DNA of 64,000 nt, from positions 502,277-566,276 of the forward strand of contig NMRA01000160.1 of the NCBI GenBank assembly GCA_002633005.1, in the 5' to 3' direction. This document shows, piece by piece, positions 33,310 to 64,000 of the stretch. The translations under genes were made by a program, and so were the position numbers. This DNA comes from Phoronis australis (Eukaryota; Animalia; Phoronida). The notes beneath the pieces were generated by a model, which saw only the letters and a program-made list of their open reading frames with translations, was not told the origin of the DNA and did no database searches. Position 1 is the stretch's first letter. Each line of letters opens with the position of its first letter.

Positions 33310-33789
33310 TCAGAAGTCACCACAAAAGCTTTGACGCAATTTTGCTGTAATCACTGGAGGTGCGCTCTGGGGCCTTCGCGATGGTCGGTCGTGGCGGTCT
33401 GACCAGGAAGCATTGGTTTTGAAGTTACAGGTTGTTGGACGTGATGACGACTGCTTGGAAAACGTAGCCACTCCTCTTGGTCCTGTTTTTCTCGGTGGTG
33501 ACTTACGTTCATAGTAAAAGGACCGCTTGGGACGGGTTTTGGCGATTTCTTTTTCGTTTTGGATCTCCTCTATTCGCCTGTGTAAACCATGCAAAGATGT
33601 TTGATACTTCTCTTGATGCGATGACACTGACCGTATCCTTTTATCCGTTTTTCTATCCAGCAAATCCAGTTCCTTCGTGAGAGCTATTTGTTCCCGTTTG
33701 TTGGCGTATCGCTGGCCGTTGCTGAATTCACTTTTCTTGATTGGCCGGTGCATTCTCGTCGTAGCGTTATTGCTTGTATTCAGTGACAT
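33310..33789 (-). CDS. Small basic coiled-coil protein (159 aa), CCDC190/DUF4697-like
   Basis: ATG at 33789. Heptad-rich segment NKREQIALTKELDLLDRKTDKRIRSVSSHQEKYQTSLHGL, followed by a disordered basic tail containing RPQSAPP. AATAAA lies just after the stop (33298-33303). The family resemblance is from memory. Confidence 0.6.
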   Translation of the reverse strand: MSLNTSNNATTRMHRPIKKSEFSNGQRYANKREQIALTKELDLLDRKTDKRIRSVSSHQEKYQTSLHGLHRRIEEIQNEKEIAKTRPKRSFYYERKSPPRKTGPRGVATFSKQSSSRPTTCNFKTNASWSDRHDRPSRRPQSAPPVITAKLRQSFCGDF

Positions 33790-37830: not shown

Positions 37831-40118
37831 CCTGTTTGACACGTTCTCAGTTTTTTGTTTTTTCTTTGCCTTTTTTTCTTGGATAATACTTCAGGAATCA
37901 AGGAAAATGTTTGATTGTTAGAGAGGAAAAACAGAAAAATTTCCTGGGCGAGAGGGGGCAAACCACCCCTCCCGACCTCCCCCCATTCGGTGCTATGCGC
38001 ATCTACAATCGTGGTTTGTGCAAATGCTTACAGCCGGACAAAATGTTGGCCCCCCCTCCTTGTGATATCCTAGATCCGTCACTGATTAGGTCTAGTTTTG
38101 AAGCAGCACTTCACCCTTTTTTAGCAGTCAATGTTGAATTCTTAACTGAAGTGTTTTGGGTTTTGAAAATATTATCACCTGGCCCTCGTCAGTCAGATCT
38201 TGGAACTATTGCCGACTCGTTATAATAAAGGCCAGATGCGGGATAAGCCTATGAACGGTCACGAACGCACAGCTGCCATAAGTTCACAGCAGTACTGACG
38301 CAACGATTTCCAGCTAGCGTGCCTTCTACCCTCAATGACTACTACCTTCCTGTGTAGGCCTACGTGCAGTGAATGGGCTCCGTTCCGTAGAATCGAAACA
38401 TGATTATCCACTTGCAGCAAGAAAGTTTCGCTATGAAACTAAAATAAGCTGGGAATTCTGTCTCATAATTTGTCCCATGACTCAAAATTCTGTAGAATTC
38501 AACTGAAAGCGCTAATGATTTCTCAATTACTATACTCGTTGACACTCGGCGCCTTACGCTCGCGTGATTTTGCTTGATCCTAGTTCGTGAACCTCGCTGG
38601 TTCCCTGCGTGTCCGGGGGTAGAGGACGCGCAGCCGGGTATCAGAGACCGTAGAGGGACAAACCACGGAGCGAAATTCCATTGGACGGCCACTGACTGTT
38701 GTTTCATGGTCTGTAGAGATGTCTAGCGGGCGTGCGTGCAGGCAAACCAATATGGCAAGATACGACGGCTCCAGTCGGTAAAAACGCAATGGTGCTTTTT
38801 GCGATGCCTGCGGCTACAGCAAAAGCCGGAATTGAAAATTCATGACTGATTGCTTCCCCACTGATCACGATAGATGATGTTCATGATTGAAATAAAGAAT
38901 GTTGATGTCTTTGCAGGTATTCCGCAGCACATGTTTTATAACTGATTGGTATCAGTTGAGCTTGGCAGTCATTGGTTAGCGTTAAGGAAAAAAAATCGCT
39001 GACTGGGAACGGTTTTTAGCCTTGTCAACATCTTTGCGAACCAAGTTTTCTGCCTAATGCAAATATTTCGTTTCTGCAGTAATGTCAGCCGCGTGGCCGA
39101 TTCAACCGGTATGTTATTCATACTGTGTGCATCAATACAGGGCAGCAACGCAAACAAAGTCAGCAACAGTAGAAAAATGCACGCCGAAAAGGCACACTTA
39201 TTTCAATGTTGCGATGTCCATGGTCTGTAGGCGGTGCACCACACTGGGGGCTATAGCACCCTTTTTTCAGTGCTGCGCCGCCCACGTCGATAGGGTTAAA
39301 CAGGACTCTAGTGTCTGCATAAGGATAGGCAGCGTTCACATGTTACGTCATCCAAAATTTGCCTCTTTTACACCCGTTCTTTCCCTGTTCACAAAATTAC
39401 CCCTTTGATCAACGTCGAATTACGTCATCACAGCCACCCCCCTTGTTTAGGCAGTCACGTAGTGGGTCTGTAGTTTTCGTACATCGTGTTTACTAAGGCA
39501 AGCCTAGTGAAATGTGATCAAATTTTGGAAATGGCACGGGTCCCCGTTTTGGAACTAGAAATTTCCCTGGGCGAACCAGGTTCCCGACGATATGTACTGT
39601 GATGCAGATATTCTAATAAACTAGGAGTCCAATCCCCTAACCCTTCGTCGGCTTTTCGAAACCCCGTCTTCCCCTCGAGCGACGACGTAATAGGTGAACA
39701 CTGAATTACATACGTCACACATGAGAGAAAAGCGGCATATTTATATTTTGAATCTCCAGAAACACTACTAGGCCTATCTGAAAGGAGATCTGTGTAACAG
39801 TGCCTTGAGTAACGAGGACCGAAAAAAAAAAACGCGTACCACTTTGCCCATAGGGTCACAACCATCTCCAATACAAAATCTTCAGTATATGTGTGCAACA
39901 CGAAACTGAAAACCCCCATCAAGTCCAGCACATACTCTCAAGTTGACATCCCACAGCTTTCCACAGATGAAAGAAACTTGCGAACACCCAAGTCTCCCGG
40001 AGACATTTGGGATTGCATTGGAAGCAAAGCACGTGACCACACTAGCTTTACTCGCCAGTGTCCTGCATCGAGGGGAGGCAAATTAAGTGAAAAGAAAGGT
40101 TGAGGTGTACAGTAAAGG

Positions 40119-40124
40119 TTTATT
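40119..40124 (-). terminator. Candidate distal polyadenylation signal of tropomyosin
   Basis: AATAAA on the - strand ~1.07 kb downstream of the exon 9c stop codon. Confidence 0.4.
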
Positions 40125-41194
40125 TGGTTAAAACAAACACAGGCATCATATTCAATGTATCAAGCTCAAAGATAATGAAGAAAATTTGCAAGTTCGCCGC
40201 TGATCTTCTACCAGACAGAACTTATGGAAGGAGGCAAAGGCCATCTCTGATGAATTAAATACATAAAACCATCTACAATTAAACACGCATACGCTACATT
40301 CTGTCCGGCCATCACCATTATAAAATGTAACGCCAAAACATTGCATACACCACCACGTGGAAACTATGTTGTCCATACAAAAGCTTACTATAAGAACATA
40401 TACAAAGACATGTTGTTAATGTACATTTCTTTCACAATACAAGTTATATAAGTTCTGTGCTCATTCCGAGCAGCAGTTGACTATTTGTTCTGCTAACTTC
40501 TAGAATCATGACCCAACTAGTTCCAGCCACTACATTTCCGGTGAAGTGTACTACAAAGGTCACTTATGATCGACATGTTTGCCTGTATAAGTGTGTGTGT
40601 GTGTGCACGCAAAGGCCTTCATTGAAGGAAGTCTTATCCTACTCAGTTCTACCGGCAATTCAAATTGAAATGATCCTGTTGATCCTTACATTTACACAAT
40701 ACGACTTTCAACGTGACCCCCTGTGCCATCGCTGAACGGTGTTGCAGTGCTGAGTAAGCGGTGTTGAAATGCCCAAAAAGAACCCATCACCAAGTCCCAG
40801 GAAGCAGGCAGCCAGAGGGGAGCTGGGGGTCAGTGATGAGTTCCTCACAAACCATAGCACTGCAGCAGCGTTCACCCAGACGGCTGACGGGCTCCAAGTG
40901 AACGTGACGAATGATGAAGGCTACACTTTCGAAATGCTTCAGTTGAGTCCAAGTAAAGCAGTCCCACTGTTCTGCTAGTATTCAAGTTCACTTGTTCGAT
41001 TGGTAGGAGTCTTGTAAAATTTTAACAACGCCGTTTTGACATAAGTAGATAACCACGGTATGAAGGAGTCCACCGAAACCTTGGCGAGAGATAAACTGTG
41101 GTCGCAGTGTATTACAAAGCTGATGAGAGAAAGCTACTTTCTAAGGCTAGCCAGAAATTATGTAAGCGCATTGTACAATTCACAGTCGTTCTTC

Positions 41195-41277
41195 CTACAT
41201 TGCCACCAGATCTGACAACGTTTGGTCCAACTCTGTACTAACGTCCTTGTACCTCTCCTGTTCAACACTCAGCTCAC
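41195..41277 (-). CDS. Tpm: Tropomyosin terminal exon 9c: (G)[26 protein letters not shown]
   Basis: ttgtag acceptor, phase 1, 83 nt to TAG. Closest of the three to the canonical ERYK..S.ELDQT tail. Confidence 0.9.
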
Positions 41278-44200
41278 CTACAATGGGACAAGAGTTGCAA
41301 ATGAACCAGTACACCAGGCACAGTGAAGCATCGAGACAAAGCCATAAGGACACTAGGGGAAAAAACATTTACTAACATGTTAGTAATCCAGTACATGCTT
41401 GAAATGATTTGCTTTAGTTTATCAACTGTTTGTTGTGTAGTGAACAATAATCGCACACTTCATCAAAGACATTGGAACTGGTCTGAGGGTGGGTGAGTAA
41501 AAACTTCCTCGTACACAATAAAAAAACAACGCATCAATGCAGGTTAAACTATTAGTACAACTCAAATGCTAATAAAGTAAGCCAGTGCAGTGCTAGATTT
41601 ACACGAGGAGAGACACACGAAACCAAAATCAACAACAGCCAAACGTGACGGGTAGCAGGAGGGACATTCTTCCTCCCTCACGCACCGCGTTCTTGTGAAC
41701 AGTGGTCTTCCTCTCTTCAAACCTGCAGTTCTGTTCTCATTCACTGCAATTCTGTTCTTACGAACACATGTCTGTCATTATCATAATGCCAAACATATTC
41801 CCAGTTTCATTACACGGGACCATTGGATACATCGTACCAAGCACGTTCTACCTAATGTCAAGCACATGCCTCGGTCAACCAAAAATAGGGGTTCATAAGA
41901 AAGTGAATGTGTGCGCAAGAACTAAATTGACATACGTAACAAAAACTTACAGCTTGTGAGAACAGAACTGCACTCGAAAGACGTTGCTCACGAGAATGAT
42001 TGCGATTCATAAGGGCGGAAGATTGTCTATCCTGGGTAGGCAACTAAACAAGGAAATATTGTAGAAAAGATCTCGTAACTTACAGCCGCACAATAAACTC
42101 ATCACATATCACCCAGTTCCCTACACATGTCTTCGAATTGCTCCTGATATTTTGCCCCCTTGGCTTTTTCATCTTGTTTCTCCGCTGCAAAAGCCAGGTA
42201 ATCTAACAACATGCGATCACGAGAAAACAGACAGGTGGCAGAGATCACCTTGTGACAACAGGTAGTACTGGACCACAGCAGCAGTCAAGGTCACTAGACA
42301 AACAGTCTAAAACCATTGACAGTCGGTCAAGTATGTAACCCTTGTCCAGTCATGACGGGGGGCATTCAATCAACCGAACCTCGCCTTCTGATAATTGTGT
42401 GTGTCTAGCGAATACCGATAGAGGAGCTATTGTGCCGAAAATGTAGAACGATGTCTAGCAAGGGAGACTACTGCAATCAAGGAAGCGCGCGTGTGTATGC
42501 ATGTGTGTATGTGTTCAAGCGTGTGTGGTTTTGTGCGAGCATATTTTTCTCAATTTTGCAGTTGTTAGTGAGACACACTGTGAGTGTTCAGAGTGGGACT
42601 TCGAAAGCATAGTTAACTAGTCGAACAGTCAACTACCACATTTACTACTACTACTACTTCTACTACAGTGGACCTTCACCCCAGATGGTTGGAGGAGAGC
42701 GCAGGCCGTTGCCTGGCAATTGCATTACAGCAAGGGCTGGTGTTCCAACTGGCAAATGCTCGGCATTCGTAAAGAATATAGACAGTGATGACAAAGCAAC
42801 CCAGAGGAGAGTCAACAACCGAACGTCATCCACACAAATCACGTGTTTGTGTGTATGCACAACATGGGAACCTCCAACACAGGCACCAAACAGCTCGGTC
42901 ATTTTCGCTCTATCTTGATACTACACTAAACAGAATGCTCGCAACCAAAGAACCTCTTGCATTCAACAGAGAAGCCAAATTCCGTTGTCTACAGTACAGT
43001 AGAGTCTTAACCACTTTCTACAATTGTCGAAACTTCCCACATCAAAGTTTTACAACGATGACAAGACAGATGGAAATGAATCTCAGATTCACTTCGTTAC
43101 CGACAACACAAGAGAGGTTGAAAAGGAACACATCACATAGCGGGGAATACGAAAAGCAATTATAAAGAAAAATGTTACCCAGCAACAGAGTGACACTGGA
43201 AAGGGAGGAATGTTCAACCATAGATTATGCCGATAAAAATTCTAAACTTCGAAAAATCACTTTCACCTTCCGATTTTTCCACGAGTTTCTACTTAGTCCG
43301 CAAGCAGTGCACTTTAGCTTCGCACAAATGGGTAATTGAATTTTACATCAACGTGACGAGAATAGGTGCATGAGGAACACCTGACTCACGAAACAAAGTT
43401 AAGTGGCGTCACATACATTTGAGGAAAGGTCGAGGACACAAGCCTCGATTTTGGAAGGCGACAGCAAAGCTGCCACTTCATTGCGGTCTATGGTTAAACT
43501 GAGAGAAAAGTCAAGTGTTTTGTACTGTTGTGAGCTTTTACACTCTCTAATCCAGTGTGTGTGGTTATGTAGCGGGCCTCTTACTAAGCTAGACGTCGTT
43601 GAGTTCACCGAGGGCCATATCCATTTCTGCCTTGACTTGAAGAGCATACTCTTTCTCTTTCACCACTTCGTCTGAAATCATGCCACCACGCTCAAGGTAG
43701 ATGCATGCCTCCTGTCACAACTGTGGACAGACTCTGGCCAGATGGCTATGTGACCACCAGTGCTACTGCAACGCTGTTGCCAACGGTGAAAGATGACCAA
43801 TGTTCCAATACATAACGCCAAAGGGTTTATATTCACAGGCTTAGACTAATAGAATAGACAATCCTGCTCAATGTGTAGGTAAATGAAAAACTACAAACTG
43901 CCTCAGTATGAAGAGATCTCTTAGCATAGCTCATTGGTCATTTTACTTGAATACAACTGGTTCTCTGTTTAAGATTATGTCAAACCCTAGAAAAATAACC
44001 AAATCTGGCTAACTTAAGAAAACCATATCTCAGAAATAGCCAATCAGATTCATTTGGAACATTCAGATATTATGCTTTATGCACTGTAGTTCTAAAAATG
44101 TCTGTATGGCCGCATAAACATCCAATCAGATGGCTGTATTTTCAGAACACATCCAATCACATGATTGTCTTTTAGACAGAAATTTAAAAAAATGTCTTTC

Positions 44201-47200
44201 TGTACATTTAAACATCAAGGTAACTAAAGAAAGAGACAGCTGAGGTCAGAGTACAAATTCTTACAGAGATGAGCTTGACTTAACATTCACCACCTTAACA
44301 CAAAGGTCACCGGGTCGCTAGCACAGTTGGCACGTCAGCGTGATTCAGTCAAAACTGATGGTCACTCACCTGGCTGGAGTCTGGCCAATTGGCACATCCA
44401 GTAATGGATGAACCAAACAAACTCACTAATTAACTTCACAATGCAACTGAACCAATATTATAAGAAATTAAACATATCTGCTGTTATTCTTAAGTAAACA
44501 TGCCATGAACCTTGGTTCTCAGGATCACACAGGCACAACGCCATCTAATGTCCGTTTTAGGTGAAAGGCAAAAATCAACTACCAAATGTCTACAATAAGG
44601 AATGCCATGCCGTTAAATCACTGAACTCTTAATGGTGAAGGGACCATATGCACAAGAAGCAAATGGTGAACTGGTTCGAGTCAAAACTTGTTGCTGCATG
44701 CGGACTATGGTTATGCCAGCTATCGACTTTAGAGTGGATTTCAAAAACAGCAGTCTTTATTCGGCAAACTGGTAACAGGCATTGTACAACTTTCCTAGTT
44801 AAAGCCACATACGAGCAGTAATTGGGTCACGAGTTCAAGTCAGAAAGAGCTAAGTACATATGCTGATCTTTCAGTGGAAAAAGAAACATAATTTGTGACA
44901 CAACATCAAGTGAAAAATTATACTTTCTCCTACAATACTTCGCTGAAACCAGCATGAGTGAGGAAAGAAACCAAAATCATTGGTGTCAAAAGGCCAACAG
45001 TTGTGAACTACAAAGCTCGTGGCCATGAAAAAATTCCACTTGACTAAACATGTATTCTTATGAAACTAGGAATGCCGACTCAACACACTTGTAAACTATA
45101 AAGGTTTTTTATGTACATGGTCTCAAGGCACAGTATGTGACTTTAACAGAATGAGGCATTCACTCAGGACAATATTTACAATGAGCAACTTTAAAGTCGA
45201 CATGAACTGCCAAACATCAACTGTCATTATAAAGGTGCCTCGAGAGAACGTAACCCCATTTGACCAGCATGCAACAGTACCTTCAAGCCTGTCCACCTCC
45301 TTCTGCAGTTTCTGTGACTGTCTCTCGCCTTCTTGAGCGCGAGACTCAGCCTGAAACAAACGGTGAAACAAGGTTAGACAATCATACAATAAGACTTGAG
45401 TTCACAGTCGTACACCCACATTAAGCTCAAACATTCTCAACAAGCAATTCAATTGCTCGAGAACACCAAACTGTACTCCAGATTCCACTAAAAAACAGAC
45501 TAATACCATCACATCGAATCTGAAAGTTTTCCTTAAGTATGCTCCTACGAGATTGGTCAATTTTCGAGTCGAGCCTCAAATACCGTGTGAGCCCAAGTCT
45601 TCATAAGAATCAACTCATAACAGGGTCAGCTGACAAGTGCTCAAGAAATGAACAGAGCGCATAGAGACCAGTCTCTTTATAAGACAACAATACCAAATCA
45701 ACATTCATAACCAGCTCCTGGACTCCAGGATATGAACCTGTCAGAAACATTTCACAAGAACGACAACAAACTAAAATAAAAGTGCATGTGAAATCACACA
45801 ACAGTACGATAAACCCTGTTGTAATGACAAGCTCAAAGGTGGCACTAATGGAACAATTCTACTTTTAAAATAAATGCATGTGTCCAGTTAGTCGTGCGAG
45901 ACCTTATCCACAACGAGCCCAAGCAGTGTCACAGCTTTTTCTCAATTAGCACAGCTTAATGAACGCAGACAAAATGACCTGCAACGACTGGATGCAAGTT
46001 GAATTCAGGTTATAGTCACTTACAGGGGTTCGGCATTTTGAGAACCTCTACAGAACAAAGAGTGTCAAACTTCTTCTCAAAATCCAGGATTCCCACAAGT
46101 TACTATTGACAAATTCTACACGGTAGCCATCCGCCACGACAAGGAATTTACAGAAAAGTTGGAAACACTAACCTATATTGCTTATAATGTTGCCAAGATT
46201 TATATGGTCAAGGACTTTTCAAGGACATTTGCAGGTAGTTCATGGCATACTCAATGCAAATTCAAGACCACTAAAGTTAAAGTTTGTGTACATTAACCCA
46301 AAACACTGGAAAGTCTTTAAGAACTGCGCACCCTCCACAAGAAGCCTGAGGTGCCCAGTCTACGGACGATACCTTACCTCCTTCAGTCTAGCAGTCAAGT
46401 CACGAATAGCTATCTCAAAAGTATCTTCTCTTTGGTTGGACTGGAAAAACAACGCAACAACTGCACTCGTACTCACAACAGTTACTAGAAGTTATCTCCG
46501 AAATTGGTTCCATTATTAGATGAAAGATTCTTTGTACACAATCCAGCACAGAACATAAATGGGCGAATGGAATGCTTTGCCATACAATGCAACTTTGGCT
46601 GGAATTTTTCAACTGAGAGACATAGTGGAGCAAGCTATCAGCCATTAGGTTACGATGCTAGCTAGGGTGCTTCCTTAACTTCTTGAGCCCGTTCTCGCGC
46701 TGCTTTTCTGACGTAGCCCGTCACGGTATCCGTCAACAGCTTACACTGTGCTGCTACAGCCCCTCCTCTCGTGGAATGTCACAATTTTATACGCGTGTGC
46801 AGCAGGAAAATTGGGATACCCACTCACTTAGAGAGCGGACATGAAACACGGAGACCCATTCATTAGGGAGCTTCCGGATAAAAATCGGCCTTTCGTAGGT
46901 TTCTGTTGCAGAAATAAAGAAGATTTGTAGAAGTTAATTCCCTAACCCTTTTGGAGAGATTCTTGGACAGGGAAATTTTAAAACAATCAAGACCGAAACA
47001 GTAAAAGGTAACAGGGAGGCCATGTTGTCAAAAATTCGCACATCCCTTCTATAAAATATTATTAAAATAAATATATGATATTGAAAACCCCTCTGCACAT
47101 TCGTTAGAAAAAAAAACATTCTGTCGTTTTCAACTTCTTAAGTCAAAGCTTGTGTAAAAAAGTACCCTTTCGTAGGAAGATAGGGTCTTCTATGAGAGTA

Positions 47201-50200
47201 CCCTCCAGGCATTACCTTGAATCATATATTTTGTTGTTCTTTTTGCAAAGCAGTGACATGATATTGTATTGAAGATTGTGGTCATTGGTCTATCTATATC
47301 TAGAGGACAAAACACAGGTCATGAAGGGGGATTGAAGATAAGGAACAGCCACCTGGTGTCTGTGTCTGACAACGGCAGCTGCTAGCCGATTGTGTACAGA
47401 GAATTGCATGCCTAACAGACAGCAGTGTTTGAGTGATACTCAAATGTCTCACCTTACTTGGAGAGGAAATAAACAACTATATGCATTTAGCTCACAGTGA
47501 GCTTCTAAACCAAACACACTTAAACAGATGTTTTCCTGAATTCTTAAATAAACACAACACTAACTTTAACAGCACACTTACAAAATTGGATAACTTAGGC
47601 AAAACATGCAGTTACAGTTTCAATTAAGTTACAGTTTCAAGTAGACAATATCACTCAGTGGCAGTGACTGCAGCCTTGCATGCGTGTGGCGACACCATGA
47701 GTGAGTCAGATAAACTAAAAGCTAGCTACATCAAGAACAGCAAGGACTAGCAATAGCACTAACAACTAAGTTGCCTGTATGTTCCGCTTTAAAGCCACAC
47801 GCAGTGAAATCTCCAAAAACCATCGTTTTGGTGCTATTTTCGAATGAAGCCTTTTATTTTGACTGGCCCTTCTAAATGGTGAATTAGCACATTCACAGAT
47901 CATTTCAACAAGAACACTGAATGCCACTAGCAGACAGTTTTATTCACAATCTTGGTTTAAAGTATTGCGCAGGCCTTTTATGAGGGAAAACCTTTTAAGG
48001 CTATAGCTCGAAAACAACAGTTTCGGAAGACATTAAGTCAAAACAGAGTGTTCCTAGACAATTGAATAAAGCAAGACTATCAGTTAAACTAGACGTGGAT
48101 CAAGATGGCTCAGGCAGGCCCTACACCGCTACTAGCTGCAAAGAAAGAACTCTTCTATAAGCAATCGGGACGATTGGAGACGTAGCATGCAGCTTTGAAA
48201 CACTTCCCCTCATCCAAACATGCAGAAAATAAAAATAGCCTCTTCCCACAACAATAGCCCAATACTATTTGCAAGCTCGAAACAGAAACTCAAAATGCAC
48301 ATCTTCAAAAAGCTATCCCCAACAAATGAGCGCGTTAAACATCTACACTCGAAACTTGCATACATATTTTCGACATAAAAAAATCATAAACAAACTTGTG
48401 CAACTAAGTTCCTGATCTCATTTCTCAAGTCGTCCGCCACTCTGTAAAGTTTGAAAATGTGCTGTACAATAGCCACCATAGATACATCCTGTCAACGTTA
48501 CCGTATAGCACAGTGGTCACCGGGGTACAAAAGGACCGTGTTTAACATACACAGACATGTAATACAAAGAGTATGTTATCTGACTGTTGGTCAAGTACCA
48601 GTTTTTTCAGGTGGATATATTTTGAGAAATCTATCAAGAACTTCTGCTAATGAAGGCGATTATCAAAACTGCATGCTACCGATGACAAGAAGCCCTGAAC
48701 ACAAGCAAGAACTGAAGTTTTTGAGGAGAGCATTGCTACGCTGCTGAGATAATGTCAACAGAAACAATGCAAGCCTCTGAAGGGACAAGAGCTTTTTGAA
48801 CATGCTCAACAACAAGACTATGGACTATCCAGGACAGCTATTCTCCACGTCAATGCTGGAGAACATGGGGAAACAAATTTGCGGCCACAGATCTTTTTAG
48901 ATGCGGTAAGTCTGCCGAGAAGAATTGTTAGTTTAAGCACAGGACATCAAAGTGAACTAGGGATTCACAGGATTCCACTAGATGGCGTCGCCACCTCCTC
49001 CACGTGTTCTCACAGATGCGCACCATGTATACCCACGAGAAATCTATAGAATGACAGATTATGCTTCCAAATGCACTGAGAACCATTCTAAGCAGCGCAG
49101 AGGATATCTAGCCATAACTCCGCTCTTGAAATTTCAGATTCACGGTGTCAAATATAACACGGTGGTGCTTAAGTGTGATACTGATACTGAAACGTTCCGC
49201 ACTTCAGACTCGTAAAATAGTGATACTAAACAATGGTGTGGTTTGGAAACTAGTACGTCTTGGAGGAAATGGAAATAGTCATGTACTTCTACTAATGGGG
49301 AGAGAGGGGGGTGTGCCGCTGAACAGATATCCTTTTCCATGAAATAACTTCTGGCAGGGAACAAACATCACTTCCAAAACACCTGAATGCAGGTTTGAAA
49401 TGTCCAGATCCAAACTCTCGACAGGGGAACACAGTTATTCAATGGCACATGCTACACCCCCTATTCCCAGCCCTCCCCACCCCNNNNNNNNNNNNNNNNN
49501 NNNNNNNNNNNNNNNNNNNNNNNNNNNNNNNNNNNNNNNNNNNNNNNNNNNNNNNNNNNNNNNNNNNNNNNNNNNNNNNNNNNNNNNNNNNNNNNNNNNN
49601 NNNNNNNNNNNNNNNNNNNNNNNNNNNNNNNNNNNNNNNCCCCCTCCCCCCCCGCCTAAAGCAACAGCGAGCATCACTGGCATAACAAGCAGTAACTGAC
49701 AAGAGCATTCCATGCATGGTATACCTCCTGTTCACTTATTTCGAGTGACTTCATGTTATTACCAACCACTTTCAGTTCATCCTCGAGTTCCACGATCTTA
49801 CTGTAAACACACACACGTGCTCGTTAGCTGCCGGGAACAAACCACTGGGTCACAAGGAAAAACATGTTAGAATCACCCGTAGGAGCAGTCTAGAGCCACC
49901 GTCTACACTCAACTGGAGCAGAGAAATCATAAACGCGGTGCGGAAGGTTAAAAAAACAAGGATTTTATTGCGTGCTAAAGAATTGTCCACCCTTGTTTGA
50001 CTGAGGTTACACAGTATTAACTAGTGGCTACTAGAGAATTGAGTGACGTGGACTAACAAGCCATGACCAGAGTGTGTGGACAACACAGCTGGCCATCATG
50101 GTTGTGTAGCCCCACGTCAGCTCACAGAAAGGTTACAGATAAAGGGTACATCGAAAAATGACTTGACACACGTCGATCAAGTGACAAGACAGTATAACAA

Positions 50201-53200
50201 CAGGGTGCACATCAGCCGACAAAGACAGAACAGATTCGACTGGGCGCTTCAGCGTTTGCCGAACAGACATGCGCCAAGACGAACTAGACGAGGAAGGGTC
50301 AAAGAGCAGGAGCCAAACTGGTGCCAGCACACTCGCAGCTGCTGCGAAACCACATCAACGAGTGGGCGGGTTGTACCTGAGAGTTCTGCACTTCAAGTGT
50401 TTTCATGTTGTTACCGACAATGGTGAGCTCATCAGTCAACTCCGAGCATTTACTACAAATCAAACAGTTGGGTCATGGATGAGAACACATATGCATAACA
50501 TTAGTACACCAAGAACCTACTGCATAATTATACATGTTACAGACAACACAGAGAATGGTAGACAGTGATCCTGCAAAGATTGCTGTTACCTGAAATTTAA
50601 GAACAAGAGCAATGTGCCGACAGGCACCCGTGGTGAGGCATCACAAGGGGCAAGGCTACTATACACAAGTTCGATATCTTTGTGTGCACACGAGAGCTGA
50701 TTGTCCAACCAAATACTGAAAGCACCAATTTACATGCCTTCTGTGATTTCTAATGATAACACACTTTCTTGGTCTCAACTCAATTCTTAAGTTATTTAGA
50801 TTCACGGAAATAATTTCTGGGTTTGAGAAAACTGGCCCACACCTGTAAATTCTCATAACGATCCTTTAAACGGTATGGCAGATTGTGGATGTCAGAAAAC
50901 GGATGCAAAAATAACAAAAATGGCCATCAGGTGGCACAGAAAACATCAAATCTATCCGAAAATGGGAAGGTGTTGTTGTCACCTAAAAAGAAGCCTTTTT
51001 GCCAAATTTCATGAAAATGCATTACTGAAATCCAAAGATACAGAGAGAAACATAAAAAGAAACATTTTGTCTCTAGGGGCACTGTAGTATCAGGATCAGT
51101 TCGACACTCGTTACTGTTTGTCGACGACTCCATAGGAATACACCTTTCAAATTTCACAAAGCTCCTTTAAAGAGTTTAAGGAAATTCGGCCGCAGATGCA
51201 AAAATATTCACCACTAAGGGGGCGACACCGTAGTCAGACCTGTCCAAAAGTCAACGTCAGTCGTGGCCTTTTCATCAACACATCAGTAAATGTTTATAAT
51301 GATCCTTTGAGCGGTACGACAGAGCGGACACCAGAAAATGGGTGCAAAAATAACAAAAATGTCCACATGGTGGTGTAACATTCGTTGAATCTGTCTGAAA
51401 ATGGAATGGCATCAACACCTCCATATAAAAAACCTATTTACCAAATTTCATTTGAATCTGTCAAGGACTCCGAAGATAATGACGCAAATGTAAAAAACTA
51501 AAATTGCCACTAGGGAGCACAGTGGTATCCAGGTCGATCGGAAACTCGACGTAGTCTGTCGTCAGCCACATACGAACACACCTGCCACATGTTAGTAACA
51601 TCCTGCAAGGGTATACATTTATAAATACATGGGTGCATAAAAATTACGCCATAAAACCGAGACGAGCACTTGCTCAAGATCTGAGAATGCTGTTTAAAAA
51701 TGACAGGCAAGCACGGTAAAAACACTCTTCTTAGAAGCAATCTAAACAGTTTCAAGATTAGCCAAGAAACTGAGCAGCCAAGCACAGTTGAGCAGTTATT
51801 GCTTAGCTCAAGTATAGTAAAATCCATTGAGTGATAACACTTCAAACCACATGGTTGGAAAAATAAGATTAGCAGATAGACAGACATGGGTGACCGACAG
51901 ACGATTGGATGCCACACAGGCGGGCAGAGAGATGATGCAATATTCACCGCCACTGTGGAAGTGGGTGAATAAAAATTGACACAAATTGGTACAATTTGAT
52001 AACGAACCACCCCGGAACAAAACAAGCAAGTCCTGAAGGCTGTTGTCTCTGCAAAAGAAAAGAACTGTGGTTTAACAAATATAACTCTTGGACAGACCCC
52101 CACCAGTAAGCTGAGGGTGACGTGGTGCGGCAGAATGAGTCGACATCCACCAGGGCCCCTCCTAAGAGCTGAAGGTCAAAGGTTGTACAATGACTTGCTG
52201 GGATGGCACCTTGTTCACAAGCCTAAAGCGAATCGGTCTATAGAGCGCGCTGCCAGGGATGGACCACACATGTGTCCTTCTTACCTGGTCTAGTTGCACC
52301 TGTATGGACTTAACTGCGATATTGGCCGCGTCCAGTTCTGTCTCCGACTCCTTCAAGGTTCTACAAAGTCAAATCTCATGTCATGCACAATACTGAAAGC
52401 AAGGTGTCTAAAATTAATGCATACCGGCACTCAAGTCGATTGTGAATCATAAAATACCCATAGCAAAAGCACTGGAGTTCATATCGGTGCTACGGAGATT
52501 TGGTTACATGATGTGAAAGAACTTACATCTTGCACAGTATAATAAGGATTTGTAATTGGTATTCAGCCCATTTCTAAAACTTTGGCGAGTACCACGGTAA
52601 ATCGGTTAAAGGTCTCGTGATTTTGTTTACAAAGACTCATCTCAAAATATAAATTTGCTCAGATAGCTGAATGTATGACACAGTTATGTGAATAGAAGAG
52701 TTCTTAGATCGCATAAGGCTAACTGTTGTATGTACTTATTTTAGTATTAATATACTCGTATCAATAAGAAAATATAAATATGGGACCATATCAAAAATTC
52801 ACAACGGTGTAATGGTATGCAGCTCTAATCAGCACTACTTTTCACATGGAATAACAATTATATAAATTAGGAAAAAACCCATTCTTTATCACCCTTTTTC
52901 CAGATTTCATAGTCAAATTTGTCAATACCACTGCTACTCAATATCTTAACCAAATCTGCCGGATGACACCACTACAGTTAAAAATCTTTTTGAACGCTCA
53001 CATGAACCGTTGGTGAGAACTTGTACCACGGGCGCACCCAGGGGGGCCTTGAGGGGCTCTAACGAGACTGCCCCCATTTGGCGAAGTGGGAAAAAAGGTC
53101 CGCCTCAGAGAAACAAAAAGTCCGAAAAAGTAGAAAACGAGACAAAAGTCCACTAAAAAGGTAGGAAGTACCAAAATTTGGCGAATGCGCAATTCATAGC

Positions 53201-56200
53201 TCTGAACGTAACCCCCGTTTTTAGTAAAAGGTCCACATTCTCAAAAATTCGAGCCCCCCCCCTCCCATTTTTAGGCTGGGTGCGTGCATGTGAACAAAGA
53301 AAAAACCTATTTACTAGTGCAATGTGTGTGTACACCAAACTGAAGACTTTTTACCGTAATAGTGAACAGCTGCAATTTCTAGCAATGTAGTCTTCAAAGC
53401 AGCTAGAAATGGGACAAACTAGACATTTTTCATAATGCGTCGTGCTTCTGTGCCCTTAATACAAAGGCGACATATTAAACAGTTATTTTGAAAAACTAGG
53501 AATCTATTATGAATTAAGATACTGGGTGCGAAAAGTTTTCATGTAGTGTAGCATTTTTGGGAGTTTTAAGCTAGAAAACCCGGTGTGCATGGACCTCAAA
53601 GATTTCAGGACAACAATCGGATATTGCGTTTCCTCAATTAAGATAACCAGCTCCATCAGTTGAACAGCTGCTGCCATCTATCAGCAAACTCTGTAGTGGT
53701 GGGACTGAGATTCGATTCAGAGGGTTTCCAAAAAGGGTGAGCATACGAATTTTGGGGGGATTGCGTTATGGTTCAAAGCGGACTTTCTTGTACACATTAC
53801 GGAGACGTAGGCACGCAAAGGATCTGTCTGAAAGGCATTTACATAAGGTTTCCTGGTCCATGCCTCCTTAAACGTATTATCTATGAAGGTAAACATTATC
53901 TAGCAAAACTGCCAACACAAACAGAACAGTGCTCCAATTCACAGTGATTAGCTAATATCATAGCAAATGAAATGGAACACAGAACNGTGCCCTTAATACA
54001 AAGGCGATATATTAAACAGTTATTTTTAAAAACTAGGAATCTATTATGAATTAAGATATTGGGTGCGAAAAGTTTTCATGTAGTGTTTTGAATCAGTGAA
54101 AAACATGCGTTTTTGGGAGTTTTAAGCTAGAAAACCCGGTGTGCATGGACCTCAAAGTAGATTTCAGGACAACAATCAGATATTGCGTTTCCTCAATTAA
54201 TATAACCAGCTCCATCAGTTGAACAGCTGCTGCCATCTATCAGCAAACTCTGTAGTGGTGGGACTGAGATTCGATTCAGAGGGTTTCCAAAAAGGGTGAG
54301 CATACGAATTTTGGGGGGATTGCGTTATGGTTCAAAGCGGACTTTCTTGTACACATTACGGAGACGTAGGCACGCAAAGGATCTGTCTGAAAGGCATTTA
54401 CATAAGGTTTCCTGGTCCATGCCTCCTTAAACGTATTATCTATGAAGGTAAACATTATCTAGCAAAACTGCCAACACAAACAGAACAGTGCTCCAATTCA
54501 CAGTGATTAGCTAATATCATAGCAAATGAAATGGAACACAGAACAAATGAACAGCAAATTCAATCCCTTTCAGCTGCACTTAAATCTCGGCAATGGTCTG
54601 ATATAACGTGCCCGAATTTTGAAAACCAGTTTTCTCAATTGAATAACTGGCATCAAACTGATTCTCAAAATACAGGTGCGTTATATTAAGACTATTGCCT
54701 AAATGTCTCCAGTTCAGGACACAGCATGGAGAAAAAGAGATTTCATTTTCTCATGATTTAATTTTTTCTGGCAGCACCACATCGAGGCTACGCAATTTTC
54801 AACTTCTATACCACTGTGACCATATCACAATATTTTAAAGACTTTAGGCCATTCACTACGTCAGAAGCCTTGAATCGCAAAAAAACACACAAAGCTGGTA
54901 ATTACTGTTGTCCCAAATCGGTGAAATTCAACTGAAACATTCAGACGTCAACTTATTCAGCTGTATTCACCCAGAGCTAATTTTTCACTGGTGGTCCCCC
55001 AACATCACTCGTGAGTGGACAAGTTCACAAATTACATGTTGGAGAACACGCCATAAACAACAGGTTTACTTCAAAAATCACCAACCCTTAACACAAATGG
55101 TGAAAATGAACACAGCCAAACGGAACCAAAATAAACACAAACCAGGACCGGATTGACCTAATTACATTCACCTAGACTGAGACTACTTACGATTCGGCAG
55201 CCTCCAGGCGAGCTTCAGCACGCTCCAGGTCAACTTCATTGATGGCCAGCTTGCGAGCAGCCTGTTAAGGGAAGACAAACTTATTAAATAGTTGGACAAT
55301 GTGACAGTGCGTTTTGTAAGATATCGGTTATTGTGAAGACTTGATGAAGACTTAATTAAACGAAAAACAGGATTCTAAGAGAGCCAAAACAAAGCCTAAA
55401 ATTTTCCGTGGAATAGTCAAAACACCAAGTGCAGTGCAAAAATCGCGCACATTCATTAGCACCAGAAGTTACGAGAATGTTTAGGAAACATTAAAAAAGA
55501 TATATTTACTTAAGGTTTACTACCAACTTGGCAAAATTTCACGAGATCATTAGAATTAGGCAACAGCATTACATCTCACTGGGATATGAGAAAAAAAATA
55601 AACTTCATGCAATATTTATGTTCCAGTAACTACTGGCAAATTTGTACAAAAACAGTGGATGATTATCGTAAATCTTCAAAAGAACAAAACGTTACCGAAC
55701 AGCGGATAAAGGATAAACATGTCATAGAACTTTCACGATTCCATGCACAAATGCTAGCCTAATAAATTTACATTTGAATTAGTTTAAAGGCACATCCAGT
55801 AAAGATAATTCTCGTTGAACGAATTTCTTGTTGAGACAAGGTTTTGATGTCCCTGTGCAGTGCACATTAGAATAAAACTATCTCATTGAGCAGAAACAGA
55901 ATTTTTGCACATGTGGCTGCAATGAGATTTTTCTAACGCTTTCTAGTAACATTTAGAAATTGTCTGCAAATGCACAAGACTTGGGTGCTTCGGTCAACAG
56001 TCTAGAAAATTAACATCATTTCCACATAGATTCAAATCTGGGACTTTTTAAATTAGAAGCCAAAGGCTTTGCCAACGCGGCCTGTTATACTAAGTACGAC
56101 AGTTTAACTAAAATTTTTATCAATGCTGAAAACACTGATTTGGCACCTCTCGGGACACTTGATTTTTCAAAGCATTGAAAATTTCCAAATTCATTGACTT

Positions 56201-59200
56201 TCAACAAATGAACATTCCACAGGGAACGTTTTGCTGCAGTTTGAAGTTGACAATTATTTTTGACATTCGAAATGGTACTGCATGGGACTTTAAAAGGGTT
56301 AACAAAATTCAGACAACTGTAATACAAGCCAAAAGTCTTCAGACAAAATGACCTGGAATTCTCCAGCATGACGGCTGAGCGAAAGCCAATTCATTGTCAT
56401 ATTGGGGGAATCAACGGGAAGGCAAATGAGGTGACTAAGCCATTCTGCTACCAGAATTTTGTCACTCTAATATCAGTAATTTTTGCTTTTCACGCAATTA
56501 ACTATCACGAAGGGTTACTGGTATTTTGTCTGAATACTTTTGTCTTGTACTGTATAACATTGAACAACATGTTAGTAAAACACAATTCATAATTTTCTGA
56601 GGACACTCCAAATAATCGGCTGAAATATCACCTTGGGGATTTCCCCTTGAAGTAAAATCGAAAATGAATACTCATCACGGTCCTTTGGAAAAAAACAAGC
56701 AAAACAATTTTTTATCATATATCAGCTTGGATTGTCCTCCTTTTCTTACAAATGGTGTGCAACTTTTCAGCTACTTTTACGCAACTTTTCAGCTACTTTT
56801 ACAAACCACCACTGAAACCAAGAATGTCAAACAACGCATAAGCGCATAAGCACATCACCAAGGTAAGATGTCGTTGCACATTTTCATACAAGTTGGTTGA
56901 CATTTGGAAGGCATTTGACGTAGTGTAAACACAATAACAACTAAATCTGCTAGCACCATGCAGGTCAGTGATACCTAGGTCTGAAATCAATCAATGCTGT
57001 TAGTCACAATTTCATGGAAGAAATCTACAATTAATGTGTGAGGCATTCGTCATGTCATCAAAAATGCACAGTGAAAATACAATTCTGATTCCGAACACAA
57101 ACGCACATACTCTCACTCATACGCGTGCACAGACGAAGCAATATTATGTTCCAATCACGACGAAGAAACTACCGCACCATTATCACCACACAATCTGGAG
57201 TGGGGGAAAACGGAGACGACAACGGGTCACAAACTGTTAATAGTCTCGTTCCTTGGTTGCACCACACGGACACTCCGACAATATGGAAAATATTTGATGC
57301 TTTCAACAGTGACCTCAAAACGCAGAAGAAAACCAGCACCGTTGATGGACATTTACACCCACCATATATCTTCATACTAATGCCAAAGTCTGGGTAAATG
57401 CCCGCCCACGAATTTTACGCAATATCACTTTTAAGCATCCACTTTTGCTTGCGTCCAATTTAACACCCATGTTTAGATTTTTTGTTCGATATAAACGCCT
57501 GGCCTGAATAAGTACAGAAGGTAGTTCGAAACCACTACAGCAAGATTTCTTCCCTTAAGCACTCAATTTATTTTTCTAGATGACCTGCTCTGAGACCAAG
57601 TTGAAGCATCTAAAGCAAAGAGTCAACATGAGCGAGATACACAGACCTCGTCAAACTTGGTCTCGGTATCCTTGACAACAACTCGCGCGGTCTCCACTTC
57701 TTTTTCCAGTCCAAGGATTTTCTCTTCGTCCGCAATTGAACGGGACTCCATAGCTTTTCTATTTCTAAACGTGCAAACGTAAAAGAGCAGGTGAGATTCG
57801 AATGCATGACAGCCACTGAACAGAAATCATGAGATTGAGAAATCTGACACTAATAACATCACCAGGCATCAGGCATGAGAAGACTCCATCATCCACACCT
57901 CATCAAACTTGGTCTCCGTATCAGAGAGAACAACGCGCGTGGTTTCCAGCTCTTTTTCCAAACCAGCAATTTTGTCCTCCTCTGTGAATGACCGAGACTC
58001 CATTGCTTTTCTATTTCTAAAGGGGGATGGTAATATTTTTAAGAGAATGAAAAAAACCTCAGGGAGTTCCCGGAGATCTCGAGGGAAAATAAACACCAGA
58101 GCGTAGTCCATCTTCTGTCTACTGGAGAGAAAGTTCAAGCACTAAAAGCAAATGTCTATCTAGCAGCCAACACGCCACCTGGTGGCCATAACAACTGAAA
58201 TGATAAGCGAAAAAGCAACTAATTATATGTCACAGGTTGTAGAGCGTTCTCCGGCACATCTAGATGTTGATCTACAAATCTAATCTTGGTTAATGACTCT
58301 GCAGCCCTCCAGCCAGCCGCAGTCGCATGCACTGGCTACACTGTGCTTATGCATGCAGCTTCACCTCGTCAAATTTTCTGTCGGCATCTTCAGCTATGAG
58401 CCGCGCCTCCTTTAGTTGGTCCTCTAGCGTCTCGCACCGCTCCTCATCTGCAGTGTTGCGGCTCTCTAGAGCCTTGCGCCCTCTGTGGAGCAAACACACA
58501 AACCACACACACAACATTAGTTACAACAACCACGAACAACAACAGTATCAACAACGACAACAATGATGGCAATCCTTTCGCAGTCGCAAATCTGTCCCAA
58601 TCAGAAAGGGAAGTGCGAACTGAAAAGAGCACAGCACTCAAGAGAGGGGGTGCCATCGAGTGACCTACCTCATCAAATTTGCGCTCAGCCTCTGTACGCA
58701 ACTCAGTGGCCTCATTTAGTGCCGCTTCGAGTGTTTCTATTCTCTCCTCGTCTATAGCTCGTCGATTATCCAGGCTTTTTCTTTGCCTGATGCCATGCGG
58801 GGGAGAAAGGGACATGCAAGGTTAGTTGAAAGGTTAGCTCTACCAACTATTCTGACAAAAAATTGGCTCCTGTTGGTGTGCGTCCTAAACTGTTCGCACA
58901 CACTGAAAGCACAAACCCAAACAAATAACTCTTTCCGCATAATTTTATTACTTCAAAGACACAGACTATAAAGACAACAACTGTCAAAGCAAAGCTACAT
59001 ACTCTGCAAGAAAAATAAAGATAAAAATAGCAAATATAAAAAAGGCATAACAAGCTGGGGTAAATGATTTGATTGACAGCAGTTGCATTCGCTTGTTCTT
59101 GATAGGTTTTCTCATCACTACAAAAACGGTGCTTTTGACCTTGACCCTGTGCTGGAGAACAATAAGGCAGTTTTCAAAGTCTCTCCTGAGTTCTTTGAAA

Positions 59201-60236
59201 TTCGTGGGAAACGAATCCATCATGGTCTCTGGATTGAGGTTCAATTTTAGGATTTGAGCACAGGGGGGCTAATTTTGCTTGTCCACTTCAAGACAAGAAG
59301 CACAGAAATGCTTGCGACTGTTTGTTTTAATTGTGTCATAAATTTATGAAAGGATTGTGTGGTTTTGCTTCAAGCTACAAAAGTTAGAAGCAAAACCATC
59401 CTGCAGTATATAAATTCTAACCCTGGAGACATGTATTGAGGATTGGGACTTTGAAATTGTTTTGAAGCACAACACCCCTGTGGGAGTGTAAAGAGTTTGA
59501 TACAGCCACAACTGCAGGACTCTGTGCTAGAGATAAGGGAAAGACAGACAGGAAATGGTTACCATCAGACTAAACAAATCACAGCAAAGATATACATTGT
59601 AAAAAACAAACTCCCATTAGATAGAAACCCAACATCATGTATTGGATGAACACTTTAAGCAGACAAAAAAGCCATGATAATTCTTCACCTATTTTGTGAT
59701 TTTTTGTTTAACAAGGACTAGTTTCCTATTTTAATGTCATATAAATGGGTATTTCAACCCGTATCGGGAATTGTTAGCAACGGCCATCTTACTCTCGCGT
59801 TCATCATCAATACTGTATAATGTATATACCACCGGCCTAATAAGCACATAACAGACATTTCTGTCCTCTTGTGGAGGGGGAGATTGTGTTTTGTGCACTC
59901 TCAAAAATGGTGATAACAGTGAAGTAACTGGACCAGGACCATATAATAACAATAATGAAGCGTTCACAGAAACATCTCTCTTAGCGATTTCACATTTTAG
60001 TTACTCAACCACAGGACATTGCCTGTAACTTCGGCACATTTTCAGTAATTGCCACTAATCCAATTGTTACTGTTAATATATCATACGGACAAGTGAACTC
60101 ACCTCTCGCTCTCATCAGCAGCTTGGGATGCCTCATCTAGTTTGGCTACCACCTCATTGAGTCGTTCTTCTGTTAAATCAAAGTTATCTTGCAGGAGTGT
60201 CAATTTATTGTTCAGGGATATCACCTCGGCATCGGC
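41195..60236 (-). CDS. Tpm: Tropomyosin, exons 3-9 with three clusters of alternative exons; exons 1-2 outside the window
   Basis: Exon sizes 134/118/71/76/63/70/83 nt and their phases match canonical tropomyosin exons 3-9. Signature sequences: [60 protein letters not shown]. Confidence 0.97.
42102..42184 (-). CDS. Tpm: Tropomyosin terminal exon 9b: (A)[26 protein letters not shown]
   Basis: ttttgcag acceptor, phase 1, exactly 83 nt to TGA. Confidence 0.85.
43589..43671 (-). CDS. Tpm: Tropomyosin terminal exon 9a: (D)[26 protein letters not shown]
   Basis: tttcag acceptor, phase 1, exactly 83 nt to TAG. Confidence 0.9.
45281..45350 (-). CDS. Tpm: Tropomyosin exon 8: [23 protein letters not shown]
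   Basis: 70 nt, tttcag / gtactg. Confidence 0.95.
46378..46440 (-). CDS. Tpm: Tropomyosin exon 7: [21 protein letters not shown]
   Basis: 63 nt, ttccag / gtaagg. Retains E218. Confidence 0.95.
49484..49639. other. Assembly gap (156 N) between C-rich runs
   Basis: Run of N characters. Confidence 1.
49725..49800 (-). CDS. Tpm: Tropomyosin alternative exon 6c (canonical type): [25 protein letters not shown]
   Basis: 76 nt, ttacag / gtatac, phase 2 to 0. Confidence 0.95.
50377..50452 (-). CDS. Tpm: Tropomyosin alternative exon 6b: [25 protein letters not shown]
   Basis: 76 nt, ttgtag / gtacaa, phase 2 to 0. Confidence 0.92.
50602..51975. mobile_element. Non-autonomous Helentron/HINE-like (pearl/DINE-1-type) element with internal repeats
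   Basis: Starts aacaagagc with the palindrome gtgcc-gaca-ggcac. Internal ~440-bp-period repeats (gatccttt...gcaaaaataacaaaaatg at ~50860 and ~51301). GACA-type microsatellite at ~51875-51905. Terminal hairpin tattcacc...ggtgaata followed by an A run. Confidence 0.65.
52285..52360 (-). CDS. Tpm: Tropomyosin alternative exon 6a (divergent): [25 protein letters not shown]
   Basis: Exactly 76 nt, ttgtag / gtaaga, phase 2 to 0, open frame, same heptad register as 6b and 6c. Confidence 0.85.
53027..53290 (-). mobile_element. MITE family B copy
   Basis: TIR cacgggcgcacccag / ctgggtgcgtgcatg. Flanks tgtac / tgaac (degenerate 5-bp TSD). Homologous to 11408-11640. Confidence 0.75.
53450..54544. repeat. 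Near-identical direct duplication (53450-53985 and 53987-54544) joined by a single N; probable haplotype artefact
   Basis: The copies differ by a few SNPs and two small indels. The junction is one N at 53986. Confidence 0.9.
55191..55261 (-). CDS. Tpm: Tropomyosin exon 5: [23 protein letters not shown](S)
   Basis: 71 nt, taacag / gtaagt. Confidence 0.97.
57647..57764 (-). CDS. Tpm: Tropomyosin alternative exon 4d: [39 protein letters not shown]
   Basis: 118 nt, gtttag / gtctgt, phase 2 to 0. Confidence 0.9.
57899..58016 (-). CDS. Tpm: Tropomyosin alternative exon 4c: [39 protein letters not shown]
   Basis: 118 nt, ctttag / gtgtgg. Confidence 0.9.
58365..58482 (-). CDS. Tpm: Tropomyosin alternative exon 4b (canonical type): [39 protein letters not shown]
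   Basis: 118 nt, ccacag / gtgaag. Confidence 0.95.
58669..58786 (-). CDS. Tpm: Tropomyosin alternative exon 4a: [39 protein letters not shown]
   Basis: 118 nt, catcag / gtaggt. Branch-point-like ACTAAC at 58821-58826. Confidence 0.92.
60103..60236 (-). CDS. Tpm: Tropomyosin exon 3: [44 protein letters not shown](R)
   Basis: 134 nt, ctacag / gtgagt. Confidence 0.95.
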
Positions 60237-63200: not shown

Positions 63201-64000
63201 TATCTTTTCAATGTACAAGTTTGAGCCATCAATTATGCCAACTTCTACTTCCAGAAGAGTGCCAAAACTCATAAGTTAAATACTAGCCGCTTCCTTAACA
63301 GATATTTGTGTTTAGTAATGAAACTTATAAAACAGGGATGAAAATTTGATACTCAATACAAGCTCTTTGTGATATTTCCGTCTTATTACCAAATGCAACA
63401 CAAGGATTTTTCTAGGATTCAAGACAGGTTACATTAAACATAAAGTTTTGTTTTCAACAAAGCGCTAACTTGATCTCAACATTTGGCGCACATTAAAAAG
63501 ATCAGTTTGCTACGTTTCAGTGAAACGGCCTTCAACCCTATAATCCAACCCAGTCAGAATGCACCGTGGGTTCAAACAGGTATCTTAACGCTTGTTGCAC
63601 CTGTCACACAGGGTCACATCACATACCAGCATAGACAGTCAGGAGATGATGCCCAATGACACCTGTACACTTCATGAAATGATTGCCTAAGCTACTCCAC
63701 CAAGTCAGGTGAAAATCAATGAGCTTACAATCCTCAGCTGATGGACATGCACTACACAACAACACAAACAGAAAGGGGGTGTGATCAGGTCAAAAGCTAA
63801 TTGCTGTGCTGACCAAGTCACAGTATCAGAGTATTCAACTTCAATTTCATTTGAAAAGGGGCCAAGCCTAAAATGCACAAAAGGGGGAGGGCTATTGAAC
63901 TGTTCTGTACCTCTGATGCAGTATGGACACAAGAGTTAAGAAGTTAATAAACTTAAAATTGAGTTAAATACGCCAGAACAATGCGTTTCCAATCTGTAAA

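Follow-up and report, generated by a model that had tools for sequence, protein, structure and literature searches.

The tropomyosin gene and its duplicated exons

The window analysed here, a stretch of 64,000 nucleotides from contig NMRA01000160.1 of Phoronis australis, carries on its minus strand the 3' two-thirds of one tropomyosin gene in which exons 4, 6 and 9 are present as tandem copies. To recover the exons, the sequence was scanned without bias for open AG..GT units, and their coordinates were checked. All ten copies described in the initial annotation were found in place and intact: four exon-4 copies of 118 nt, three exon-6 copies of 76 nt and three terminal coding exons of 83 nt, all with AG acceptors, open frames and the same length and phase within the cluster, and those of exons 4 and 6 with GT donors.

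The RNA data consist of three stranded raw-read runs from one study, called X3, X4 and X5, of which 18-19% each was used, and of X1, a contig set guessed to be RNA whose contig depth is a poor measure. The reads were aligned to positions 40400-60300 of the window, and the results on joints refer to the best 15 of 79 joints. In the list below read numbers at joints are given in the order X3/X4/X5.

Exon 3, 60103..60236, minus strand: 134 nt, constitutive, preceded by an exon outside the window; PF00261 E 1.9e-06; joints to 4a, 4b and 4d
Exon 4a, 58669..58786, minus strand: alternative, 118 nt; joints 3-4a 269/190/246 and 4a-5 178/147/178, also in X1; PF00261 E 8.1e-07
Exon 4b, 58365..58482, minus strand: alternative, 118 nt, most conserved copy; joints 3-4b 174/166/284 and 4b-5 108/101/168
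Exon 4c, 57899..58016, minus strand: alternative, 118 nt, intact; residual depth 0-7%; no joint among the best 15 of 79
Exon 4d, 57647..57764, minus strand: alternative, 118 nt, derived, strongly sample-dependent; joints 3-4d 14/118/461 and 4d-5 14/65/318
Exon 5, 55191..55261, minus strand: 71 nt, constitutive; joints to 4a, 4b, 4d, 6b and 6c
Exon 6a, 52285..52360, minus strand: alternative, 76 nt, very divergent, minor; depth signal, no joint among the best 15 of 79; no Pfam match
Exon 6b, 50377..50452, minus strand: alternative, 76 nt; joints 5-6b 84/140/406 and 6b-7 127/189/439, also in X1
Exon 6c, 49725..49800, minus strand: alternative, 76 nt, most conserved copy; joints 5-6c 215/187/298 and 6c-7 275/204/356, also in X1
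Exon 7, 46378..46440, minus strand: 63 nt, constitutive; joint 7-8 539/610/1052
Exon 8, 45281..45350, minus strand: 70 nt, constitutive; joints to 7, 9a, 9b and 9c
Exon 9a, 43585..43671, minus strand: stop at 43589 after 83 nt (coding 43671-43589), followed after 4 nt by a GTAAGA donor; probable cassette of 87 nt; joint 8-9a 141/101/131
Exon 9b, 42084..42184, minus strand: stop at 42102 after 83 nt (coding 42184-42102), followed after 18 nt by a GTAAGT donor; probable cassette of 101 nt; joint 8-9b 110/149/93
Exon 9c, 40100..41277, minus strand: 83 coding nt (stop 41195) and about 1.1 kb of 3' untranslated region (UTR), with an AATAAA at 40124; probable common last exon, its 3' end given approximately; joint 8-9c 210/273/695

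The family profile PF00261 is matched by 11 of the 14 exons, at profile positions 39-240 in the order of the exons (E 5.7e-10 to 0.085). Taken singly only 4b passes the curated cut-off, and 6a, 9a and 9b have no match. The share of hydrophobic residues at the a and d positions is 0.55-0.88 in all 14 exons, the ten copies included, which means that the heptad coiled coil is unbroken and in the tropomyosin register; exon 4b aligns with residues 126-164 of solved tropomyosins (PDB). Amino acid identity among the copies is 33-77% for exon 4, 24-56% for exon 6 and 15-31% for exon 9, there are no indels between copies, and conserved basic residues are missing from the derived ones. All 36 exon combinations (36/36) are in frame, and each can be read as a single open frame that starts in exon 3 and reaches its stop over 204 codons. 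The introns between neighbouring copies are 186, 348 and 134 nt long in the exon-4 cluster and 1832 and 576 nt in the exon-6 cluster.

The copies of exons 4 and 6 are not chance open frames, because their scores lie far above those of the next-best candidates. Compared with 4b the three other exon-4 copies score 87-100 and the next best scores -10 (38 minus-strand 118-mers of the window that are open and bounded by AG and GT). Compared with 6c the scores are 74 for 6b, 25 for 6a and -1 for the next best (67 open 76-mers), and the best of 75 candidates in a plus-strand control reaches 8. A tblastn search of the 14 exons against the window gave no further exon copy. One could be concealed in a gap of 156 N at 49484-49639, which follows exon 6c at a distance of 85 nt and is bordered by runs of C.

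The synonymous rate (dS) exceeds the nonsynonymous rate (dN) in 12 of 12 pairs within clusters. Copies 4c and 4d, which are 78% alike, have a dN of 0.14 and a dS of 1.03 (dN/dS ~0.14) while their flanks are only 29-33% alike, and judged from these figures they are two selected coding copies under purifying selection. On the same low ratio and unrelated flanks an assembly artefact was rejected for the pair.

Use of the copies in RNA

Of the best 15 joints, fourteen correspond to introns of the tropomyosin gene with GT-AG ends (3-4a, 3-4b, 3-4d, 4a-5, 4b-5, 4d-5, 5-6b, 5-6c, 6b-7, 6c-7, 7-8, 8-9a, 8-9b and 8-9c); the fifteenth is found in X1 only, at an intronic inverted repeat. Junction reads are thus present for eight of the ten alternative exons, that is three of four exon-4 copies, two of three exon-6 copies and all three exon-9 copies, which disposes of the possibility, raised at the outset, that only one variant per cluster is ever spliced in. 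In X3-X5 the junctions lie on both sides of 4a, 4b, 4d, 6b and 6c and lead into 9a, 9b and 9c. No joint that skips a cluster or includes two of its copies is among these 15.

The proportions in which the exons are used vary between samples. From X3 over X4 to X5 the share of 4d is 0.04, 0.23 and 0.47, that of 6b 0.25, 0.39 and 0.56, and that of 9c 0.46, 0.52 and 0.76; the X1 contigs have mostly 4d and 9c. Exon 6a is seen as depth, with 74, 71 and 14 reads at position 52330 in X3, X4 and X5 compared to about 8-10 in the intron (6-7 times the intron in two runs), corresponding to shares of about 0.15, 0.13 and 0.01. At this position every read in the three runs differs from the assembly; by hand the difference was found to be in a third position and synonymous. 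For exon 4c the residual depth of 0-7% is inside the error of the estimate.

A single upstream sequence (agreement 1) is found at the loose ends of reads on exon 3 in X4, X5 and X1, with 274 reads in X4. The sequence was not found in the window, nor was a second upstream exon found in 60237-64000, and such an exon could be among 860 further loose-end entries. In X4 joint 3-4d has 118 reads, fewer than the 274 of this sequence, and the X1 contigs are dominated by 4d; the one sequence thus probably precedes both 4d and 4a/4b.

The 3' end

Exons 9a, 9b and 9c had been described as three terminal exons. This holds in coding terms, but both 9a (87 nt) and 9b (101 nt) are probably cassettes that carry a stop and are spliced to 9c as a common 3' UTR. 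The cassette reading is based on four features: consensus donors follow the stops after 4 nt (9a) and 18 nt (9b), each with a background chance of ~0.03; the covered length implied by depth is short, 79-113 nt for 9a and 69-109 nt for 9b; the depth of the UTR behind 9c, which 3' bias could inflate, follows all the 8-9 joints, being 1.2-1.5 times their sum but 2.0-2.65 times joint 8-9c alone; and when the 1.5 kb following each of the three stops are compared, an AATAAA or ATTAAA occurs only once, behind 9c. Messengers carrying 9a or 9b would escape nonsense-mediated decay, since their stop would be followed by the last junction after 4 nt (9a) or 18 nt (9b). Another acceptor for 9b upstream at 42202 (101 nt) was rejected, as the reads use 42184 instead.

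Comparison with lev-11 and other tropomyosins

The closest known parallel is the C. elegans gene lev-11. It has three mutually exclusive exons of 118 nt, experimentally verified (PMC4165533, Table 1). Its exons are listed as 4a-b, 5a-c, 7a-b and 9a-c, with 9c as a shared end, and it has two promoters (PMC5921574); an exon 7c was added later, and in the isoform LEV-11U one divergent exon sharply lowers actin affinity (PMC10512467). Seven isoforms are known (PMC11702560). The choice of exons is tissue-specific, and the nominal combinations are far above seven (PMC5921574, PMC10512467, PMC11702560). The likeness to the P. australis gene is extensive: exons 5a/5c/5b have the size of exon 4 here, exons 7a-c cover residues 188-234 and thereby include the exon-6 segment, the non-coding end 9c follows 9a or 9b, and some copies are very rare and very divergent. 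The two genes differ in that lev-11 has three and not four 118-nt copies, that its exon 7 of 139 nt corresponds to exons 6 and 7 fused, and that its preceding exon is also duplicated (4a/4b). A tree of exon 4 (39 columns) was mostly without resolution and grouped among the window copies only 4c with 4d, so orthology to the lev-11 copies is unsupported.

Vertebrate TPM genes have one exon 4 and two copies of exon 6. TPM1-4 share the protein register of the P. australis gene (4b being residues 126-164), and differ in being four genes rather than exon arrays alone. Duplicated 3' exons, three in each gene, are found in TPM1, Tm1 and lev-11; tropomyosin exon duplications are treated as convergent, and six further events are counted in lev-11 (PMC9741552). 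Tandem duplication of many tropomyosin exons has occurred repeatedly and independently in most bilaterian lineages (PMC3342872). The tandem copies described here fit this pattern of "internal paralogy", although the assignment of copies to two promoters that goes with it is not obviously enough for four and three copies.

Among other proteins, a strict filter leaves 13 of the 154 examined with at least two stretches that resemble exon 4. When the scoring is relaxed, the snail Batillaria gains a third such stretch and the fluke Fasciolopsis a second. In Batillaria attramentaria KAK7486764.1 exon 4 then has three counterparts, one of them weak and two strong, and exons 5 and 6 have two each; Gongylonema pulchrum VDN27058.1 has three exon-4-like stretches. 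Two exon-4-like stretches each are found in Paralvinella palmiformis KAK2162088.1, Fasciolopsis buskii, Daphnia, Timema, Eumeta and Phyllotreta. It should be noted that gene models with fused copies are automatic, so that copy numbers taken from them are lower bounds and exclusivity is not established there. In public tropomyosin gene models from snail, fluke, annelid and nematode, alternative copies are run together in a single protein, which points to exon arrays that lack annotation in these genomes.

The maximum for exon 4 elsewhere is three copies, and the four in P. australis are one more than in any other case found. None of the titles and abstracts listed in searches of open papers describes a four-copy exon 4; subscription papers, supplements and the Irimia 2010 survey were outside the search. 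The novelty implied in the initial annotation is low all the same: the same 118-nt exon is an exclusive trio in lev-11, together with three exon-7 and three exon-9 copies, in a pattern that recurs in bilaterians, and the P. australis gene is at the upper end of a known device in copy number.

Exons 5 and 6c come nearest to those of snails and an annelid, and the gene is lophotrochozoan. Exon 5 is 96% identical to snail and 91% to annelid tropomyosin; for exon 6c the identity is 92% with Biomphalaria, 80% with flukes and 76% with a beetle; exon 4b is 67% identical to a fluke tropomyosin. No close match to 4c and 4d was found in the protein data, the best being 49% and 54%. Homolog searches gave none among 45 candidates with exon 3 and four flatworm proteins among 1904 with the exon-4 alignment. 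The Atlas search returned generic tropomyosin clusters with low recognition.

How exclusivity may be kept

The initial annotation reasoned that skipping or double inclusion shifts the frame and that use must therefore be mutually exclusive. The premise is correct: when skipping, double inclusion and multiple inclusion were tested, 13 of 13 forms ran into a stop 102-595 nt upstream of the last junction. With more than 100 nt in every case, nonsense-mediated decay would clear such messengers as a second safeguard. Given the frameshift, exclusivity is needed if a good protein is to be made, but how it is enforced does not follow from this, and the lev-11 trio stays exclusive in a decay mutant, with no dependence on nonsense-mediated decay (PMC4165533).

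Weak donors of the alternative exons (GTGAAG, GTGTGG, GTCTGT, GTACAA and GTATAC) had been pointed out and are as read in 4b, 4c, 4d, 6b and 6c. The generalization fails, as 4a (GTAGGT) and 6a (GTAAGA) have strong donors and the constitutive exon 8 a weak one (GTACTG). Exon 6a has the best donor of its cluster, yet it is the least used, and donor strength has no predictive value for use. Steric exclusion is unlikely with intervening introns of 134-1832 nt; a branch-like CTGAT 30 nt from the donor is present in the 4c-4d intron only, with another AG before the acceptor. Dscam resembles the P. australis gene in having several tandem clusters of alternative exons in one gene, and has orders of magnitude more copies. 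Its docking/selector type of exclusion is not supported here, since in the exon-4 cluster, the one analysed, the best common duplexes (-18.3 and -17.3 kcal/mol) are inside the range of 12 shuffles each. With steric exclusion unlikely and docking/selector pairing unsupported, and by analogy with lev-11, the explanation left is that cell-type splicing regulators would choose one copy per cluster.

How many isoforms are made

The figure of up to 36 isoforms is an upper bound. The marginals, that is the exon shares of the nine copies other than 4c in the three runs, can be fitted within 0.05 by none of 36 sets of three isoforms, by none of 1890 sets of four and by 10 of 24300 sets of five. The isoform 4d-6b-9c is in every one of the four best five-isoform sets. 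Some mixing is forced: in X3 6b must occur without 4d in at least 21% of the messengers and 9c without 4d in at least 42%, and in X5 9c pairs with both 6b and 6c. The floor is about five isoforms, six with 4c, and the marginals set no ceiling. It should be noted that junction counts carry sequence bias.

We consider it probable that this is one tropomyosin gene with tandem copies of exons 4, 6 and 9, of which at least eight of ten are spliced in at proportions varying with the sample, and that the outcome is a limited, partly coupled set of isoforms of equal length, at least five and probably far fewer than 36, predicted to tune actin-filament binding. Exons 4d, 6b and 9c rise together and may mark the isoform of one tissue. 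Altered binding of actin or partners is predicted for the derived copies because the coiled-coil core is kept in all copies while the derived ones lose basic residues; such an alteration is shown for LEV-11U (PMC10512467). Several points weigh on the other side. Rare double inclusion or skipping could be present among the remaining 64 of the 79 joints, and joints of 4c and 6a as well as 9a-9c and 9b-9c are absent among the best 15. X3-X5 are from one study with 18-19% of each run read, and X1 is only guessed to be RNA. The marginals from unphased reads are a lower bound, and the number of combinations made at some level may be much higher and may even include all of them. Neither a splicing regulator nor a cis-element emerged from the analysis.

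A modular code built by exon duplication was proposed in the initial annotation. Tandem duplicates are indeed used as alternatives, but a code of 36 isoforms is unsupported. In its free form, with the three clusters chosen independently and most of the 36 isoforms made and used, it would agree with the fact that all 36 combinations are in frame and with the forced mixing in X3 and X5. The co-variation of 4d, 6b and 9c across runs, the five isoforms which are enough for the marginals, the low level of 4c (at most ~7%) and the seven isoforms that lev-11 realises from a larger nominal set make such a code unlikely. The Irimia model, in which the first exon ties each copy to a long or a short isoform class, is the published explanation for the recurrent duplication of tropomyosin exons (PMC3342872), and the two promoters of lev-11 (PMC5921574) speak for it. 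We find it quite improbable for P. australis, where four and three copies are more than two classes and where the single sequence upstream of exon 3 probably precedes both 4d and 4a/4b. That 4c and 6a are dead duplicates or assembly artefacts, leaving a working array of 3 x 2 x 3, would fit with their lack of a joint among the best 15 of 79, with the probable haplotype duplication nearby in the assembly and with the missing Pfam match of 6a. This is highly improbable given that 4c and 4d are 78% alike with unrelated flanks and a dN/dS of ~0.14, and that 6a keeps its heptad and reaches a depth 6-7 times that of the intron in two runs.

Beyond the limited, partly coupled set which we prefer, a more far-reaching version can be formulated, doubtful as it is: the array would be the largest tropomyosin exon-4 array known, its clusters would recombine behind one first exon independently of the long/short promoter switch to give an actin-filament code of well over ten isoforms, and a lineage-specific 4d-6b-9c form would displace the ancestral-like form in the highest-expressing tissue.

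Neighbouring sequence

Positions 53450-53985 and 53987-54544 form a tandem duplicate of ~550 nt (95%) on either side of a single N; its depth is about half that of the nearby intron bin, and the two halves are probably haplotypes that the assembly placed next to each other. In the introns, repeats and inverted repeats at 41724-41972, 50838-51520, 53016-53300 and 56323-56554 draw reads from elsewhere, several on both strands, and are probably small mobile elements. Outside the tropomyosin gene two open reading frames (ORFs) were noted:

26867-27730, minus strand: single-ORF forkhead gene, PF00250 E 1.8e-34
33310-33861, minus strand: basic ORF of 183 aa, no Pfam family above cut-off

Matches of the forkhead gene include a FoxQ2-like protein from Saccoglossus and many Fox proteins from lophotrochozoans, the best named full-length ones being mostly from molluscs, nemerteans and a brachiopod; its tree did not resolve, and the gene is left unplaced.

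Significance

The P. australis gene reveals no new mechanism. It is a clean, expressed example of the recurrent duplication of tropomyosin exons, and its 3' design is the same as that of the nematode gene, probably reached separately. The comparison also draws attention to exon arrays which are mis-annotated as fused proteins in public gene models. Whether copies of tropomyosin exons are bound to particular promoters or combine without restriction can be tested directly in this gene.

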